A stretch of 64,000 nucleotides of DNA. It comes from an uncultured bacterium. Lineage in GTDB: Bacteria > Actinomycetota > Acidimicrobiia > Spongiisociales > UBA5794. Numbering within the stretch: position 1 is the stretch's first letter; each line of letters begins with the position of its first letter. Below, one piece after another: positions 31,464 to 38,440 of the stretch. The position numbers and the translations under genes are program-made. The notes under the pieces are model-generated. The model did not search any database. It was given only the letters and a program-made list of their open reading frames with translations, and was not told the DNA's origin. Where the stretch lies: assembly GCA_963801165.1 (NCBI GenBank), contig CAWDDT010000005.1:96001-160000 (forward strand). The letters run 5' to 3'.

Positions 31464-32123
31464 ATGAGCCGAACAAAGCTGGAGCTGATCTTGCTCGGAG
31501 TCCTGCTGCAACGGCCGCAGACAGGCTATGACCTGACCGGATTCATGGACAAGGCCGGCCGATTCATGCGCGACAACACGTCGATGACCCAGGTGTATCG
31601 ATCCCTACGACAGATGGAAGAACTCGGCTGGCTCACCCACACCGTCGAGCCGAGACCGGGGGCGCAGGACGCCAAGCGCTACGCCGTCACCGACGAGGGT
31701 CACGACACCTTCATCCACTGGCTGAACGAGCCCTACCGCCCTTCGGAGCAGCCGGGTGGCGGAGCCTTCTTCACCCTGCTGCGCTTCCGCGCCACATATA
31801 TAGGAGTCGACTCCGTACTGGACCTCCTCGACACCGAGATCGCATATCGCAAGACGCAGATCGCAACGAACCGGTACCGCGACCGGACCGAATGGGTCGA
31901 CACGACCGTGTCCTTCGACGATGAACTGGCCGGCGCCGTCATGGACTGGATCCACCATCGAGGCGCCGACCGCATGGACCGACATCTCGAGTCCTGCCTC
32001 GAGCTGAGGGCAGCTCTAGCGCATGGCGAGCTGCCACTCGACAGTTGCCCCAATCCGCTGCTCCGCACCGGCGAGTACCGCGGTCCCGAGCTCACCCCCG
32101 CCATGGAGAGGAGCGCCCGATGA
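31464..32123 (+). CDS. PadR-family transcriptional regulator
   Basis: LLGVLLQRPQTGYDL, QVYRSLRQMEELGW, KRYAVTDEG. Confidence 0.9.
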   Translation: MSRTKLELILLGVLLQRPQTGYDLTGFMDKAGRFMRDNTSMTQVYRSLRQMEELGWLTHTVEPRPGAQDAKRYAVTDEGHDTFIHWLNEPYRPSEQPGGGAFFTLLRFRATYIGVDSVLDLLDTEIAYRKTQIATNRYRDRTEWVDTTVSFDDELAGAVMDWIHHRGADRMDRHLESCLELRAALAHGELPLDSCPNPLLRTGEYRGPELTPAMERSAR

Positions 32124-33886
32124 GAGCGATCATCCTGATGTACGACAGCCTCAACCGGCACATGTTGCCGCCGTACGGCGACACTTTCGTGCAGACTCCC
32201 AACTTCGAGCGTCTCGCCGAGCGCACCGTGATGTTCGACAACTACTACGCCGGTTCGATGCCGTGCATGCCTGCCCGCAGGGAGATGCATACCGGCCGGT
32301 ACAACTTCCTCCACCGCAGCTGGGGACCCCTCGAGCCATTCGACGACTCGGTCTTCGAGATGCTGAAGAACGCCGGAATCCACACGCACCTGGCTTCCGA
32401 CCACCCCCACTACTGGGAGGACGGCGGGGCCACCTACCACACCCGCTATTCGACGTGGGAGTTCTTCCGCGGCCAGGAGGGTGATCCGTGGAAGGGTGTC
32501 GTTGATGCACCCCCCGACGAGATCGGCGGGATGTTCGGTCGGATGCGACGACAGGATGCGGTGAACCGCTCGTACATGCCTACCGAGATGGACCATAACC
32601 AGACGCAGACCGTCGATGCCGGCATCCACTTCCTCGAGACCAACGTCGGCGCCGACAACTGGCTTCTCCAGCTCGAGCTGTTCGACCCGCATGAGCCTTT
32701 CTTCGTGCACGAGGACTACAAGAAGCTCTACGCCGACGACTACGAGGGACCCGAGTTCGACTGGCCCCCGTACAGCAAAGTCACCGAGGGGGCGGACAAG
32801 GCCAAGCACGCCCGCAACGCCTACGCAGCCCTGGTGACGATGTGCGACCACTCGCTGGGCAGGGTGCTCGACTTCATGGACGGCCACGACATGTGGGACG
32901 ACACCATGCTGATCGTCAACACCGATCACGGCTACCTGCTCGGTGAGCACGGGTGGTGGGCCAAGGGTGTGATGCCCTGGTACAACGAGCTGGTCCATCT
33001 CCCCTTCTTCATCTGGGACCCCCGCACCAGGGGGCGGGAGGCTCACTCGACTGTGTTGGCTCAGACCATCGACCTGGCACCAACACTTCTCCGCTATTTC
33101 GGTGTCGAGCCGACCGCCGACATGCAGGGACACGACCTGGCAGAGGCCTTGAACGACGGCGTGCTCCCGCGTGAAGGTGGCCTCTTCGGCTTGCACGGCG
33201 CGCATGTGAACGTCACCGACGGACGGTGGGTCTACATGCGGGCCGCCGACAATCCGGAGAACGCTCCGCTCGAAGAATTCACGCTCATGCCGACACACAT
33301 GCGTTCCCGCTTCCGCCCATCCGAACTCGCCGGGTGGGAGCCCGCCGAACCATTCTCCTTCACCAAGGGCGTGCGCACGATGAGGGTGCCGGCGGGTTCG
33401 CCGTTCATCAATCCATGGCAGCACGGGACTCTTCTCTTCGATCTGGAGAACGACCCGGAACAGAACCACCCGGTCATCAACGACGAAGTCGAGCTTCGCA
33501 TGCTCGGTCTTCTCGTCGATCTCATGCGCGCCACCGACGCCCCGCAGAGCCAGTTCGACCGCCTCGGGCTCCCCGCCACAGGGGCGCCGACCGAGGCTCA
33601 CTTGCGTGTCGCCACCGACGCCGGGCGGGCAGCCGAAACCGCCGAACCGGTGCCACCGGTCGAAGGCCTGACGGCGGCACCGATCCTGCAGATGCCGTTG
33701 GCGGTGGCGATCGAGGACCCGGTGTCCGGCCCGATCCTCAGGGAGTACGTTGCCGATCTGGTCTCGAGCGAGTTTCTCACGATCGCACCAAACGTCAGCG
33801 TGCTCGACCTCGTGGCGAGAGCACAGCTCCCGGTGGCGACACTGCGGGAGATTGATGCCCGGCTCGCCCGCTCCCGCCGTCGGTGA
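32120..33886 (+). CDS. Cys-type (formylglycine) sulfatase with C-terminal extension
   Basis: YDSLNR, CMPAR..MHTGRY (CxPxR), FDPHEP, NTDHG.LLGEH, LFDLENDP; no signal peptide. Confidence 0.92.
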   Translation: MRAIILMYDSLNRHMLPPYGDTFVQTPNFERLAERTVMFDNYYAGSMPCMPARREMHTGRYNFLHRSWGPLEPFDDSVFEMLKNAGIHTHLASDHPHYWEDGGATYHTRYSTWEFFRGQEGDPWKGVVDAPPDEIGGMFGRMRRQDAVNRSYMPTEMDHNQTQTVDAGIHFLETNVGADNWLLQLELFDPHEPFFVHEDYKKLYADDYEGPEFDWPPYSKVTEGADKAKHARNAYAALVTMCDHSLGRVLDFMDGHDMWDDTMLIVNTDHGYLLGEHGWWAKGVMPWYNELVHLPFFIWDPRTRGREAHSTVLAQTIDLAPTLLRYFGVEPTADMQGHDLAEALNDGVLPREGGLFGLHGAHVNVTDGRWVYMRAADNPENAPLEEFTLMPTHMRSRFRPSELAGWEPAEPFSFTKGVRTMRVPAGSPFINPWQHGTLLFDLENDPEQNHPVINDEVELRMLGLLVDLMRATDAPQSQFDRLGLPATGAPTEAHLRVATDAGRAAETAEPVPPVEGLTAAPILQMPLAVAIEDPVSGPILREYVADLVSSEFLTIAPNVSVLDLVARAQLPVATLREIDARLARSRRR

Positions 33887-33986: not shown

Positions 33987-35396
33987 ATGACAACCGAAGC
34001 GAGCAAGAGCAGCGCCGTGGCCGCATCGGACCTCAAGGTGTGGTCTCCGGAGTTCGTCCATGTGCTGGCGAAGCCGACCGGTGCGATCTGCAATCTGGGT
34101 TGTAGCTATTGCTATTACCTGGACAAGGAGGCGATGTATCCGGGCGACCGGTTTCGCATGTCGGACGAGGTCGCCGAGGAATACGTCCGGCAGACGATTG
34201 GGATGCACCGCACCCCCGAGGTGTCGATCTCGTGGCAGGGTGGCGAGCCCACGCTCATGGGAGTGGGCTTCTTCGAGAAGGTGATGGCGCTCGAAGAGAA
34301 ATACCATCGGCCGGGGCAGAAGATCCTCAACACGATCCAGACCAACGGCACGCTACTGACCGATGAATGGGCTGCGTTCCTCGCCGAGCATGACTTCCTC
34401 GTCGGGATCAGCATCGACGGGCCGCAGCCACTCCACGACGCCTACCGGGTGGACAAGCGGGGTGGCGGCTCGTTCGAGAAGGTGATGCGCGGGCTGCGGT
34501 TGCTGCAGAAACACGGGGTGGACTTCAATATCCTCACTACCGTCAACCGTATCAACGCCGACTATCCGCTCGACGTCTACCGGTTCCTGCGGGACGAGGC
34601 AGGCGCCGACTGGATCCAGTTCATCCCGATCGTTGAGCGGGTCGATGAATCGGGACGCCCGGCGGACATGACGGGCACATTGGTTTCCGATCGGTCGGTG
34701 CGTGCCGGACAGTTCGGCGAGTTCCTCGCCACAGTCTTCGACGAATGGGTTCGCAACGATGTCGGCAAAGTCTTCGTGCAGACCTTCGAAGCGGCGGTCG
34801 CCAACTGGGCGGGGATGCCATCGTCGGGCCTCTGCGTGTTTGACGAGACCTGTGGCCGCGGCGTCGCTCTCGAGCACAACGGTGATCTCTATTCCTGTGA
34901 TCACTATGTAGACCCCGACTTCCGTCTCGGCAACATCACCGAGACCCCGATCGGCGATCTCGTCTCGTCCGAGAGACAGCATCGGTTCGGGATGGACAAG
35001 CGCGACTCTTTGCCTGCGTTCTGCCGCAGCTGCGACGTCCGGTTCGCCTGTCACGGTGAATGCCCGAAGAACCGGTTCATCACAACACCAGACGGCGAGC
35101 CCGGTCTCAACTACCTGTGCGCCGGCTACAAGAGGTTCTTCCATCACATCGACCGGCCGCTACGGCTCATGATCGACGTCCTCCGATCCGGTCGGCTCGC
35201 CGCATCCGTGATGGATGTCCTGACAGCCGAAGACGCCGCCTTCGAGAAGGCCCTCCGCCAAACCGGTAGGAACGACCCATGTCCCTGTGGCAGCGGTCGG
35301 AAGACAAAACAATGCCACGGTGCGCCGCCCGACGCCACCACCAAGCCGATATCGATCCAACCGGCGCCGCCCCGCCCCCCGATCAGATCGGCGTAG
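33987..35396 (+). CDS. Anaerobic sulfatase maturase (radical SAM/SPASM) with C-terminal SEC-C motif
   Basis: [37 protein letters not shown]....[29 protein letters not shown]. Confidence 0.95.
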
Positions 35397-35906
35397 AGGC
35401 CTGTATGCCCACCAGGAGTTGTTCGGTCACGCCGAACACAAGGTTCCTGCGTCCCGGGGTTCGCTCGGAGAGGGAGCGCCAAACCTGTGGGCGGAATCCA
35501 TCTGTTGTCATCCGTTGCCGGAGAGGCTGCCAAGTTGTTGGCTGAGCTCGTCGCTGTAGAGATAATCCTCAGCCGGGCAAGGCGTTTTCCGAAAGACGCA
35601 CTGGCTCGACCGCCGACTTGTTCTTCGCGGGGTTTGGGGTGAACAACAGCGCGTTCTACGAGGACACAGAAGCCCGGGTATGAATCTTTGAGGGTGTCGT
35701 AGTCGCGCTGCGGGCGCACGCGACTCAAGCGGCTTTGGACGACCTAATCGCCCTCGCATCCGGACGAAGCGCGTCGATGGTGTGTTTGTCCCGGGCCAGC
35801 AACCGGCTAGGAGGGTGGTGATCAATCGCGGTGAAGGCTCGCAGTGCCCGAGAAATCATCGTCTTCGAGACATGCCATCGAGCCTGAACTCGAATTCAGC
35901 ACACTC

Positions 35907-37310
35907 CTAAGCGCGGAACACCTTGGCGAGGACTTCGCGGACCTGGGGGGTGAATTGCTCCTCGATCTGTGATGCGGCGACATCAGCCTCGGCGGCGACG
36001 CTCGCCAGCTCTTCCTCGATCCGCCGGAGACGGGCGTAGAACTCTTCAGGGGGGATGCGCAGGAACCAGGGGCGCAGGTCGACGAGGACGAGCCGGCACC
36101 ACCACGGGAGCCTCGTATACTCCGCGCCCAAGGCGATCGCGCCACCCGCCGCCGAGCTCTGGGTGAAGTTGGGCGTGTCCCTCGCGTCCTTCACCATATC
36201 GGCGTAGCTGAACGCCTCGGACGCGGCGATCTCGCCGTTGTGGTCGGTGTCGGGATCGAGCGAGAGCGCGCCGCCGAAGCAGTCGTGCCCGGCCTGTGCG
36301 GCGACCCAGTCCCGGGCGAACGGGTCCCAGTTCCCGTCAGCCGTGACGTAGGAGTTGTTCGGCTCGGTGGCCGCCGAGGCGACGCTCGTGGCGTCGGCGG
36401 GACTTTGGTCGATGATCGGTTGGTTGAACCCTCCCGCGTGGCATTGCTCCATCATCACGATCAGCTTGCGGAACTCTGGTAGCTCGCCCAGCTTGGCCGC
36501 GAAGTCGTTGGCGTAGTAGCCGTCCCAGTTCGGATATGTGCAGAGGTTCGCGGTACCCGCCGTACCGTCCCACCCGCCGTGGTTGTTGGTGTGGATGAGC
36601 AACAGATCGTCGCGCTCGATTCTGCCCTTCAGGGTGTCAACGACTCCGTCGAGGGCTGCACGCGTTCCCGAACCGTTGATCTGGATCCGGTAGTTGGTGT
36701 TGTCGCCGGGCCACTGGCTCTGGACCCCGTCCTGGGTGTTGAGGGTTCCGTCGTAGCTAAGCGAGTAGATGTTCCCGGGCTCGAAACCGTAGGTGTCGAC
36801 CAGCGTCCGGTAGAGGAACTCCATGTCGTTGAGATGGCGCTTGTTCGTCATCCCTGCGTACAGCACGGCGTAGCGAGTGCCGACCGTCCTCCTTATGCAC
36901 GGGAAGATTGGTTGGGGGCGGAAGACCAGATCGTCGACGTAGCGAACCGGCTGGTGGAACGCGCTGAGCGTCTCGGGCGGTGCCTTCACCCAGGGCGGAA
37001 ACACGGCGGGCACGACGCGGTCGAGCTCACCGGTCTTGGCGTCGTGGAGTAGGTAACGGCAGTCATGGGCGAAGTTGGCCATGGGATCGTCGTCGGCGAA
37101 GACCAGCACGCTGGCGCGGGTCGCCCTGATGTTCTGCCGGCGCGGCCCGATCAACGTCCCTCGCCGGATGATCCTCTCATCGAGATGGAGGTTGGTGGTG
37201 GCCCGTTGGTGGTGGGCGAGAGCCGCAAACGCCTGTTCTCGAACGTTGGCCCACAGCTCGCTCCGGTCGATGCGGGCCCTGGTGTTTCTCCTGGGTGGGT
37301 TCTCCGGCAT
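35907..37310 (-). CDS. Clan CD cysteine peptidase (C13 legumain-like/caspase fold) with uncharacterised N-terminal domain
   Basis: YAVLYAG first strand, RHLND..FLYRTL, LLIHTNNHGG (catalytic His), IVMMEQCHAGGF (catalytic Cys), DTDHNGEIAASE Ca-loop-like motif; GGGAG RBS before ATG 37310. Confidence 0.8.
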   Translation of the reverse strand: MPENPPRRNTRARIDRSELWANVREQAFAALAHHQRATTNLHLDERIIRRGTLIGPRRQNIRATRASVLVFADDDPMANFAHDCRYLLHDAKTGELDRVVPAVFPPWVKAPPETLSAFHQPVRYVDDLVFRPQPIFPCIRRTVGTRYAVLYAGMTNKRHLNDMEFLYRTLVDTYGFEPGNIYSLSYDGTLNTQDGVQSQWPGDNTNYRIQINGSGTRAALDGVVDTLKGRIERDDLLLIHTNNHGGWDGTAGTANLCTYPNWDGYYANDFAAKLGELPEFRKLIVMMEQCHAGGFNQPIIDQSPADATSVASAATEPNNSYVTADGNWDPFARDWVAAQAGHDCFGGALSLDPDTDHNGEIAASEAFSYADMVKDARDTPNFTQSSAAGGAIALGAEYTRLPWWCRLVLVDLRPWFLRIPPEEFYARLRRIEEELASVAAEADVAASQIEEQFTPQVREVLAKVFRA

Positions 37311-37321
37311 GTTTCTCCCTC

Positions 37322-37687
37322 CTAGATCTCGGCGGCGGCAAGCACCGCGTCTGGAACCGACGGGGCCCGGTAGAGCACCCGCCATTCATACGGATCCGCG
37401 TCGCCCGCTCGGCGGAACGGCGGCAGGTGCGCATCCACCGTCCTCACTTCGCCGGACGCACGGCTCACGAGGACGAACAGCGCCGGATGGCTCCAGTTCG
37501 CCATCGGATCGAGGTCAACGAACGCCATCAGTGCGTCCCATGGGCTCGTGAATGCCATTTGGGGAAACTCGAGCATCGAGCCCGAGGCGACCGGTGTCAG
37601 TGCCACATAGACAGCGCAGTTGCACAAAGTCTCCGGGGAGAGCACGGCCATCACGGCTGCTCTGAGGTCTTCATCCGTGAGCGACAT
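37322..37687 (-). CDS. Hypothetical 121-aa protein homologous to the N-terminal domain of the downstream peptidase
   Basis: FVDLDPMANWSHP...GEV...PPF aligns with FADDDPMANFAHD...GEL...PPW; ends 11 bp before the peptidase start. Confidence 0.75.
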   Translation of the reverse strand: MSLTDEDLRAAVMAVLSPETLCNCAVYVALTPVASGSMLEFPQMAFTSPWDALMAFVDLDPMANWSHPALFVLVSRASGEVRTVDAHLPPFRRAGDADPYEWRVLYRAPSVPDAVLAAAEI

Positions 37688-38060
37688 TGATAACACCCAC
37701 CCCGGGGAGCGTCGTAGGTCTTGGTCCACCGAGCCCGTGCAGCCAGGCATCGGTATCCCGTACGCACGCCGTGAGAATGGTCATCCCTAGAGGCCCCTCC
37801 TGATGGCGGTGGTGCCGTATTCGGGCACCGAACGACGAGTGAACCGTACGTCGGAGACCAGCTCCGTGTCAACAGAAGGTGAGCCTTCAATCCTGTTTCG
37901 GATCACGTCGGCGCGGAGGTTCATCGCCGGTCCCGCGGCGGATCGCCCAGCAGTTTCACCTCGCGCTCTAGGTCACCGAAGAGCCGCATGTCGGCCGTCT
38001 TGACAGCTTTCGCCTGCACATGCTGTCAGGGAAGACGCTTCAAACAAGCGGTCGGGTCGA

Positions 38061-38135
38061 TGTTTGCTCCCGGGGAGATCGGTGACAGATCGTTCCGGAC
38101 ACATGTGTGACAGTGTTCCGGGGAGATGTGTGACA
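38061..38135. mobile_element. Orphan IS terminus, IS481-family-like (TGT end plus three 20-bp subterminal repeats); no transposase
   Basis: TGT at 38061, then TCCCGGGGAGATCGGTGACA (38068), TTCCGGACACATGTGTGACA (38093), TTCCGGGGAGATGTGTGACA (38116). Confidence 0.6.
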
Positions 38136-38440
38136 TCACCGAGCCCACCAGCCGGGTCACAAACGCTACGGAACTACCACAACATCTGCCACCAGTATCA
38201 ATCAGGCACGTCTCTTCTCGGGTAGTCGAACACCGACTGTGGCTGGCGGCGGCCATTCCTCGACCGGTCGAGAGCGGGCCTCTCCGCCTCGGTGCGTCGT
38301 AGGGCTCGGTGTTGTCAAGGTCAGCCGAGGGCTCGCATCCCGGACGGTCGTGCCGCGCCCCTGCGCAGGATCTCCCACCGACAGTCTCAGCAGAGCAGGA
38401 GCCCAAACGGCGTTCTCGCGGCAACTCACCTTGCCGGTGG

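Follow-up and report, generated by a model that had tools for sequence, protein, structure and literature searches.

What does a free-standing copy of a protease's own N-terminal domain do beside the protease gene? The question is raised by a gene pair in a stretch of 64,000 nucleotides (hereafter the window) of contig CAWDDT010000005.1, positions 96,001 to 160,000, in assembly GCA_963801165.1 of an uncultured bacterium of the Acidimicrobiia. A small gene (37322-37687, minus strand) encodes a protein of 121 amino acids, modelled as a helix with an antiparallel sheet, and is followed by a protease gene (35907-37310, minus strand; 467 amino acids plus stop) whose product carries an N-terminal domain paralogous to the small protein, a C13 catalytic domain and a helical tail. 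The evidence, in which a predicted complex has a central place, leans towards a self-contained two-gene module in which the small protein would be a canonical, tight-binding, propeptide-like inhibitor at the protease active site, and the fused N-terminal domain would act alike.

A C13 peptidase and a free copy of its N-terminal domain

The large protein is a cysteine peptidase of family C13, with the legumain fold. Pfam assigned residues 147-350 to Peptidase_C13 (PF01650) with 25.2 bits and an E value of 1.4e-5, a narrow margin over the gathering (GA) cut-off of 22.8 bits, and a profile of 29 family members matched plant legumains among the sequences of the Protein Data Bank (PDB) with a best E value of 4.9e-8. 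In an alignment of hidden Markov models (HMMs) with the plant vacuolar processing enzyme VPE-gamma (PDB 5obt), the motifs nkRHlnD, nnHGG and leqChaG fell on NYRHQAD, NHGG and LEACESG, respectively, and His244, Gly245 and Cys290 were invariant in 29 of 29 proteases (alignment A2). The AlphaFold2 (AF2) model of the protease had a predicted local distance difference test score (pLDDT) of 82.2 and a predicted template modelling score (pTM) of 0.75. Top Foldseek matches of this model were all legumains or asparaginyl endopeptidases (AEPs), with E values from 2.7e-10 to 4e-8 and probability 1.00; template modelling (TM) scores to mature legumains were 0.62-0.68. Zymogen legumains aligned with the model over 311-375 columns, the longest of these alignments having root-mean-square deviations of 15-24; they yield no clear equivalence between the helical tail and the LSAM-type prodomain that caps the active site in legumain zymogens.

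The S1 pocket of legumains, which accepts Asn or Asp, is built from an Arg-His before the first helix, a Glu after the catalytic Cys and an Asp in a lower loop. Arg158-His159 of the window protease was invariant in the family and aligned with the RH of the legumain NYRHQAD motif, and Asp329, also invariant, contacts Asn64 of the small protein in the complex model described below. The residue after the catalytic Cys is His in 24 of the 29 proteases and Asn in the other five; legumains have Glu.

From its N terminus, the protease comprises an alpha/beta domain, a poorly modelled linker, the catalytic domain, an EF-hand-type loop, a Trp-rich stretch and the helical tail. The N-terminal domain (hereafter N-domain; residues ~16-120, 36951-37265, minus strand) was modelled with helices at residues 16-29 and 33-38 and five strands. 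The catalytic domain occupies residues ~146-390 (36141-36875, minus strand), with His244 encoded at 36579-36581 and Cys290 at 36441-36443. Within it lies the stretch D354-T-D-H-N-G-E-I-A-A-S-E365 (36216-36251, minus strand), possibly an EF-hand-type loop with a putative calcium site, as judged from its sequence pattern; the residues D354-x-D356-x-N358-G359-x-I361...E365 are kept in most of alignment A2 and are absent from the protease of locus L034. The Trp-rich stretch (residues 396-415, ~36066-36125), which reads LPWWC in the window protease and WWWWC in the family consensus, joins the catalytic domain to the tail. The tail (residues 402-467, 35910-36107, minus strand) was modelled as helices at 402-416, 421-430 and 432-466, with pLDDT values of 63-80. 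No signal peptide was seen by eye. A tRNA-Arg (ACG) called by ARAGORN at 36077-36151 (minus strand) lies inside this conserved open reading frame (ORF), matched no Rfam tRNA at E ≤ 0.1 and was set aside as a probable false positive.

The small protein and the N-domain are paralogous over ~90 residues. BLASTP aligned the two at E = 2e-7 (residues 22-110 against 7-94, 21 of 89 identical), and 14 free small proteins alone yielded an HMM that matched the N terminus of the window protease at 4.3e-17. When a 63-sequence profile was run against the whole 4.55-Mb genome, only two places were found, the small gene (9.7e-39) and the protease N terminus (6.0e-19). The resemblance includes an exposed loop, D60-P-M-A-N64-W65-S-H67 in the small protein (37487-37510, minus strand), whose copy in the N-domain reads D75-P-M-A-N79-F80 (37071-37088, minus strand; alignment A2); Pro76, Asn79 and His82 of the latter were invariant in 29 of 29 proteases. 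Much of what the initial annotation had read from the letters thus stood. Its legumain/caspase-fold protease with an intact His-Gly/Gln-Cys dyad was borne out by Pfam, Foldseek and the motifs aligned with the plant enzyme; the paralogy that it had drawn from one stretch of 16 identities in 37 (correct on recount) extends to the whole comparison above; the DxDxNG motif that it had pointed out is present and, as a sequence pattern, largely conserved in the family; the helical C-terminal tail that it had described appears in the model; and, like it, we saw no signal peptide by eye.

The small protein has 14 close homologues of 39-48% identity, and an exhaustive profile search with its family returned 852 cluster representatives at E ≤ 0.001. 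Among the best 150 of these 852, 137 are of 260 amino acids or fewer. Members are typically ~115-125 amino acids long with invariant motifs, and the whole ~120-amino-acid fold is conserved; the AF2 model of the window protein had a pLDDT of 91.3 and a pTM of 0.85. The small protein matched no Pfam family at E ≤ 1 and no NCBIfam model, the protease likewise matched no NCBIfam model, and comparison of the small family with PDB sequences gave a best E value of 1, which is chance level. In the ESM Atlas, the small fold retrieved unnamed clusters and the N termini of C13 proteins, together with a PepSY cluster at a TM score of 0.43.

Prokaryotic C13 enzymes generally use the small domain as an N-terminal accessory. 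Of 16 longer representatives scanned, six combine it with Peptidase_C13; four of these six have two tandem copies before the catalytic domain, and three have a type-IX secretion tail. Two copies per enzyme are therefore a recurring arrangement: in some cases both are fused, in others one is fused and the other stands free. The proteins with tandem copies ahead of the C13 domain are P0162, P0216, P0247 and P0251, the last three bearing the type-IX secretion tail. Four further representatives (P0219, P0224, P0234 and P0282) combine such a tail with two domain copies, and Pfam detects no C13 domain in them; possibly these are multi-headed inhibitors that are secreted. Two kinds of match were discarded. 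P0182 (508 amino acids), with an N-domain and a C-terminal copy of the small type, had been considered as a 'Rosetta-stone' fusion; its protease homology gives way to low-complexity sequence at residue 276, short of the Cys motif, so it was taken as a frameshifted gene model and left unused. Matches in the giant adhesin-like proteins P0243 and P0263, which are rich in Ig and cadherin repeats, were treated as spurious; domain E values were ~1e-3 to 1e-4 in P0263, and no domain of P0243 fell below 1e-3 on re-scan.

Predicted docking of the small protein in the catalytic cleft

The complex of the small protein and the protease was predicted with the alignments of both families. Three runs gave values of 0.80, 0.79 and 0.79 for the interface score ipSAE, and the best of three controls gave 0.00; among solved complexes, 116 of 157 come up to the mark used for this score, as do 2 of 215 mismatched pairs, a calibration that is rough here since custom alignments were used. 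The runs agreed in at least 95% of contacts, of which there were 67-71, and the pLDDT of the partner was at least 88. Modelling of this complex had been suggested by the initial annotation, and the prediction passed its controls.

In the model, the small protein contributes Asp60, Met62 to His67, His87, Leu88, Phe91 and Pro112, among others, and the protease contributes Asn243-His244-Gly245, Glu288-Gln289-Cys290-His291, Asn319 to Val322, Asp325 and Asp329. The residue pairs of lowest predicted error join Asn64 with Ser320, His244, Cys290 and Asp329. The small protein is thus predicted to bind the catalytic cleft, with Asn64 in a P1-like position beside His244 and Cys290, and further contacts from its residues 87-95 and 112-117 would form exosites. 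All named interface residues of the protease are at position 154 or beyond, in the catalytic domain, and none belongs to the N-domain.

The residues in contact are the most conserved ones in both families. On the protease side, Asn243, His244, Gly245, Cys257, Glu288, Cys290, Ser320, Asp325 and Asp329 were invariant in 29 of 29 sequences. On the side of the small family (alignment A3, n = 63), Asn64 was kept in 61 sequences and replaced by Asp in the other two, and Trp65 and His67 were present in all 63. Over 164 domain instances from the top 150 library representatives, the position of Asn64 held Asn in 157 and Asp in four. Asn and Asp are the P1 residues of legumains (reviewed in PMC4357240).

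Linkage, spread and setting of the pair

A search with the protease scored 7,997 candidates, of which 851 were relatives at E ≤ 0.001; the best 120 of these 851 shared 52-72% identity with it, in nearly every case along most of the query, and came from very different phyla. A scan of species-representative genomes provided 34 public loci. Their hosts include bacteria of the Acidobacteriota, Chloroflexota, Verrucomicrobiota, Actinomycetota, Pseudomonadota, Thermodesulfobacteriota, Bacteroidota and Planctomycetota, and archaea (Bathyarchaeia, Nitrososphaera and Thorarchaeota). A free copy of the small domain stood beside the protease in 31 of the 34 loci. It preceded the protease on the same strand in 19, followed it on that strand in 11, and in one lay downstream but on the opposite strand. 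The recurrence of stand-alone copies next to the protease, which the initial annotation had regarded as a test of the pairing, was therefore found, and the variation in gene order implies that adjacency survived several changes of order. No free copy was detected at L023, at L030, where the protease is truncated, or at L033, which starts 50 bp from the contig end.

In a maximum-likelihood (ML) tree of 32 free copies and 35 N-domains, a single branch with support 100/97 separated the two sets, all N-domains forming one clade, and the subtrees mirrored each other. Pairwise identities of the two proteins were correlated across 30 pairs (r = 0.88; 0 of 2000 permutations as high), a length filter having removed two of 32 pairs; as the relatives are not independent, the correlation shows co-inheritance and no more. 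These results indicate one old duplication, followed by co-inheritance of the free copy and the protease. The tree does not follow taxonomy, Bathyarchaeia being nested with Geobacter and Chloroflexia. The protease was not found in 40 close relatives (14 of the genus, 10 of the family and 16 of the order), nor, at E ≤ 1e-20, in 400 further genomes drawn from the phylum. The pair seems to be a mobile two-gene unit that has passed between distant bacteria and archaea. It is also present on plasmid pMETHO01 (NC_019972.1) of a cultured archaeon, Methanomethylovorans hollandica DSM 15978, where a small-family ORF (L038:4591-4965; VFVDLAPHANWAHPC...) lies 50 bp upstream of an 804-amino-acid 'C13 family peptidase', with ParA and an IS5 transposase nearby; this ORF is outside the gene table, which is known to be incomplete. 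Pattern-based scans of viral contigs found no relatives of either protein.

Neighbouring genes vary widely among the loci, and most are metabolic or transport genes. The exception is a set of upstream genes that recurs in seven of the 34 loci and is missing from the window. A hydrolase of ~900 amino acids, PETase/chlorophyllase-like and with an alpha/beta-hydrolase core at residues ~450-680, is encoded on the same strand, directly upstream of the small gene in L002, L009, L012, L013, L015 and L017 and upstream of the protease in L021. In six of these seven loci it is followed by a conserved protein of 112 amino acids (protein X, MARNxLPLSHYEAE...) that belongs to no Pfam family. A relationship of protein X with the small family was considered and dismissed (hhalign probability 0.1). 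Hydrolase, protein X and the pair may constitute a four-gene version of the module, in which the hydrolase may be a substrate or co-effector.

Some neighbours were seen at single loci. A C11 clostripain-family peptidase is encoded at L016:3-926 (minus strand). Defence-like genes, none of them recurring, encode an NB-ARC/TPR STAND NTPase (L006:2313-4988, minus strand), a SIR2 protein (L007:2598-3320, minus strand) and a TIR-domain protein (L028:142-2394, plus strand). In Ginsengibacter, a DUF805b RNA motif (RF02914; L019:2573-2607) scored 39.6 bits, the cut-off being 35.6, and lies 43 bp before the protease start. At L021, six tRNA genes follow within 1.4 kb 3' of the pair.

In the window, the two genes are separated by an 11-bp spacer (37311-37321, minus strand), TAG-GAGGGAGAAAC-ATG, in which a GGAGG-type Shine-Dalgarno site (GGAGGGAG) overlaps the TAG of the small gene ahead of the protease ATG. 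An ATG at 37750 would offer an alternative start for the small ORF, giving 142 amino acids; relatives begin at the position of the 121-amino-acid form. The pair is flanked by 753 bp without a credible ORF on its upstream side (37688-38440), presumably the promoter region, and by 510 bp without a credible ORF on the other (35397-35906). The spacing on one strand and the isolation between ~500 and ~750 bp of non-coding DNA had been described correctly in the initial annotation. Neither flank contained an Rfam family, and a scan of the minus strand near the module for promoters and terminators found none, with no sigma-70-like site in the upstream stretch. No c-di-GMP riboswitch was seen in the window region at E ≤ 0.1, nor at the gathering score in any of the 34 loci. 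At 38070-38139, ~400 bp 5' of the small gene, short direct repeats (families D1 and D3) comprise two copies of GTTCCGG..ATGTGTGACA, 23 bp apart, with a CACATGTG palindrome; these repeats may be an operator.

The neighbours convergent with the pair are a sulfatase gene (32045-33886) and, beside it, a gene for a radical-SAM/SPASM protein resembling sulfatase maturases (33987-35396, plus strand), which ends in a SEC-C motif (PF02810, residues 428-445). Upstream, on the same strand as the pair, lie genes for a type-B carboxylesterase and two DUF202 proteins. In five relatives searched for synteny, the maturase (anaerobic sulfatase-maturating enzyme, anSME) was found in all five and the carboxylesterase gave a weak match in three and none in two; no insertion boundary could be defined from these five. 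The base composition of the pair is the same as that of its surroundings, and no convincing integration marks (flanking direct repeats or a tRNA gene) were seen at the pair. Five read-length contigs (151-211 nucleotides, at least 99% alike) from three metatranscriptome libraries matched both genes, at 36510-36660, 36826-36976 and 37057-37267 on the protease gene and at 37372-37522 and 37509-37659 on the small gene. Such libraries may contain DNA, and the parts left uncovered are uninformative, so the contigs are a weak hint of transcription of the pair.

Inhibitor, substrate or switch

In the mechanism that we favour, the partner, a paralogue of ~105 amino acids, would dock as a folded body on the catalytic domain, and its rigid hairpin loop, D-x-x-P-x-A-N-W-x-H, would enter the substrate cleft and bring Asn64 to the place of a P1 asparagine. 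As long as the partner is bound, the protease would be silenced in the cytoplasm. The fused N-domain, having the invariant loop too, may serve the active site as well, in cis or between protomers, which would amount to a zymogen-like latency; for the protease to become active, the plug would have to be lost, cleaved or displaced. Inhibition would be expected rather than turnover because the fold is rigid and well modelled, contact is made by a hairpin loop, the interface is broad and includes exosites, and the domain is conserved as a whole. The inhibitor or substrate in trans that the initial annotation had envisaged agrees with the predicted pose.

Several points weigh against this mechanism. 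Binding and pose rest on prediction throughout, and a solved legumain-cystatin complex exists, so that memory in the predictor may conceivably have contributed; the small protein has no detectable likeness to cystatins. The invariant Arg158-His159 is not among the named contacts, and the His or Asn that replaces the legumain Glu after the catalytic Cys may change P1 specificity. No residue of the N-domain touches the partner in the complex model, and autoinhibition by this domain, in cis or in trans, is something that we purely infer. The small-protein fold found no convincing solved relative in the PDB (best Foldseek E value 0.29), and its best VIA match had a Z score of 5.8, under the noise level of ~8 stated for that tool. 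The pose itself, moreover, would suit an inhibitor and a substrate alike. The small protein might thus be a true substrate or precursor, cut after Asn64, whose fragments, or the loss of whose intact form, carry the function, with the N-domain autoprocessed at Asn79. We regard this as unlikely, although it deserves serious thought: it would place Asn64 beside His244 and Cys290 just as inhibition does, it would account for the near-invariant Asn/Asp at that position, and legumain cleaves cystatin E after Asn39 at low pH (PMC4506564). The breadth of the predicted interface (67-71 contacts plus the exosites at 87-95 and 112-117), the conservation of the entire 120-residue fold and not merely of a site, and the rigidity of the domain (pLDDT 91), in which the loop is a short hairpin turn, argue against it, because these are features of canonical inhibitors and not of processing sites.

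A toxin-antitoxin-like or anti-phage switch, in which a toxic protease is held by a labile inhibitor until stress or infection removes the latter and the protease cuts cell proteins, would fit a self-contained two-gene unit of variable gene order, its extremely patchy distribution (0 of 40 relatives and 0 of 400 genomes of the phylum), a gene tree that departs from taxonomy, the plasmid copy beside ParA and IS5 and the STAND NTPase, SIR2 and TIR neighbours. Against this, no model of PADLOC-DB 2.0 was matched by either protein at E ≤ 1, the neighbours are mostly metabolic or transport genes with no recurring defence gene, pattern scans of viral contigs revealed no relatives, and the pair does not stand out in composition from the DNA around it; we consider such a switch somewhat less probable still than a substrate, and the role in defence or cell death to which the initial annotation alluded received no support. 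Its other suggestion, binding through the shared domain, fared no better. Homotypic domain pairing is common in caspase regulation, and the paralogy of the small protein with the N-domain would invite a similar role as adaptor or activator, but the confident interface lies entirely in the catalytic domain (residues 154 and beyond) and the small protein is most conserved at the surface formed by the very loop that enters the cleft, which leaves homotypic pairing a very slim chance. Finally, high-GC DNA yields many spurious ORFs, and the small ORF could in principle have been a chance ORF or a decaying partial duplication devoid of function. This is already refuted by the conservation data: the family keeps its invariant motifs and its length, 31 of 34 loci link the free copy to the protease, the free copies make up a clade of their own that mirrors the protease tree, and the model is confident; the short RNA-library contigs on the small gene add weak evidence. 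The small ORF is a genuine gene that has been conserved, and the decay that the initial annotation had named as fatal to its proposal was not found.

The pair can be compared with several known systems. The legumains, asparaginyl endopeptidases and plant VPEs (MEROPS family C13, clan CD) share with the window protease the C13 assignment, the fold, the RH, His-Gly and Cys motifs and the correspondence between their P1 residues and the Asn/Asp of the partner. Unlike them, the window protease is prokaryotic and apparently cytoplasmic, judging by the lack of a visible signal peptide; it has an extra folded N-terminal domain of ~105 amino acids, which eukaryotic legumains lack, and a short helical tail in which no LSAM prodomain can be clearly recognised; its family has His or Asn after the catalytic Cys in place of Glu; and its sequence likeness to solved legumains is weak (the profile match at 4.9e-8 being the best). 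Transpeptidase activity is known for some plant C13 enzymes and for human legumain. The window enzyme might by analogy be a cytoplasmic asparaginyl transpeptidase with the small protein as acyl donor, the bond after Asn64 being opened and then either resealed, as a reversible, energy-free latch, or transferred to an amine. We think this improbable; if true, it would reveal a prokaryotic legumain-based module for protein ligation or tagging that moves between bacteria and archaea.

The predicted pose resembles that of folded inhibitors of legumain, namely cystatin E/M or C (PDB 4n6o) and the mycocypins, which insert an exposed Asn loop into S1 and add an exosite. As described in PMC4506564, cystatin E binds in a substrate-like manner, with Asn39 of its reactive-centre loop fully in S1 and an exosite loop alongside, and its bond is cleaved and religated by legumain in a pH-dependent way. 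The small protein differs from the cystatins in having no sequence relation to them and only a noise-level likeness of fold (a designed cystatin fold at Z 5.0, stefin at Z 3.4), in presenting its loop as a beta-hairpin turn with an invariant Trp at P1', and in being a paralogue of the enzyme's own domain, encoded alongside. The Q-x-V-x-G motif of the cystatin superfamily (MEROPS I25) was not seen by eye in the 121-amino-acid sequence, which also matched no Pfam family at E ≤ 1.

SpeB of Streptococcus pyogenes has an adjacent, co-transcribed inhibitor, Spi, described as an analogue of its propeptide and as a likely guard of the cytoplasm (PMC2873492, with reference to Kagawa et al. 2005). As in SpeB-Spi, the window pair consists of a protease and a free protein homologous to its own N-terminal region, encoded by adjacent genes; these lie on one strand with an 11-bp spacer in the window, on the same strand in 30 of 34 loci and on opposite strands in one. 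Unlike the secreted SpeB, which belongs to clan CA (C10), the window protease belongs to clan CD (C13) and has no secretion signal by eye, and the two systems have no sequence relation. A substrate-like Asn loop is not known to be the mechanism of SpeB-Spi. The pair would thus be comparable to SpeB-Spi in gene layout and to cystatin E-legumain in binding mode. PepSY and M4 propeptides (YpeB, YpmB and the thermolysin type) also pack a helix against an antiparallel sheet, and the Pfam description of PepSY speaks of protease-propeptide/inhibitor modules; the small protein did not match PepSY (PF03413) at E ≤ 1. The leading VIA chains were PepSY-like, cystatin-like or M4 propeptides, with 4exr and 5boi at Z 5.8, 2gu3 at Z 5.0 and the M4 propeptides at Z 4.0-4.1, all below the noise level and so a lead only.

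Pairs of proteases with propeptide-like inhibitors and Asn-loop inhibitors of legumain are already known; the small family, its fold and the combination are undescribed. In agreement with the initial annotation, which knew of no account of this pair, the literature covered, from which most subscription journals are missing, does not report any prokaryotic C13 protease accompanied by such a partner. The C13 peptidases of prokaryotes are numerous and essentially unstudied, and if the favoured reading is true, the small protein would be the first protein known to act as the cognate inhibitor of a legumain-type enzyme in prokaryotes. It would also found a new inhibitor and prodomain family, which counts 852 cluster representatives and has neither a Pfam model nor a solved relative. 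Plugging of S1 by an exposed Asn loop, the trick that cystatins play on legumain, would then have arisen a further time, by duplication of the enzyme's own N-terminal domain. The pair offers a testable handle on how a caspase-fold protease can be kept harmless in a cytoplasm and, as a compact protease/inhibitor pair, may be useful for engineering, where C13 enzymes are already sought as peptide ligases. That the pair has jumped between phyla and between domains prompts one to ask which selective service a protease latch of two genes provides.

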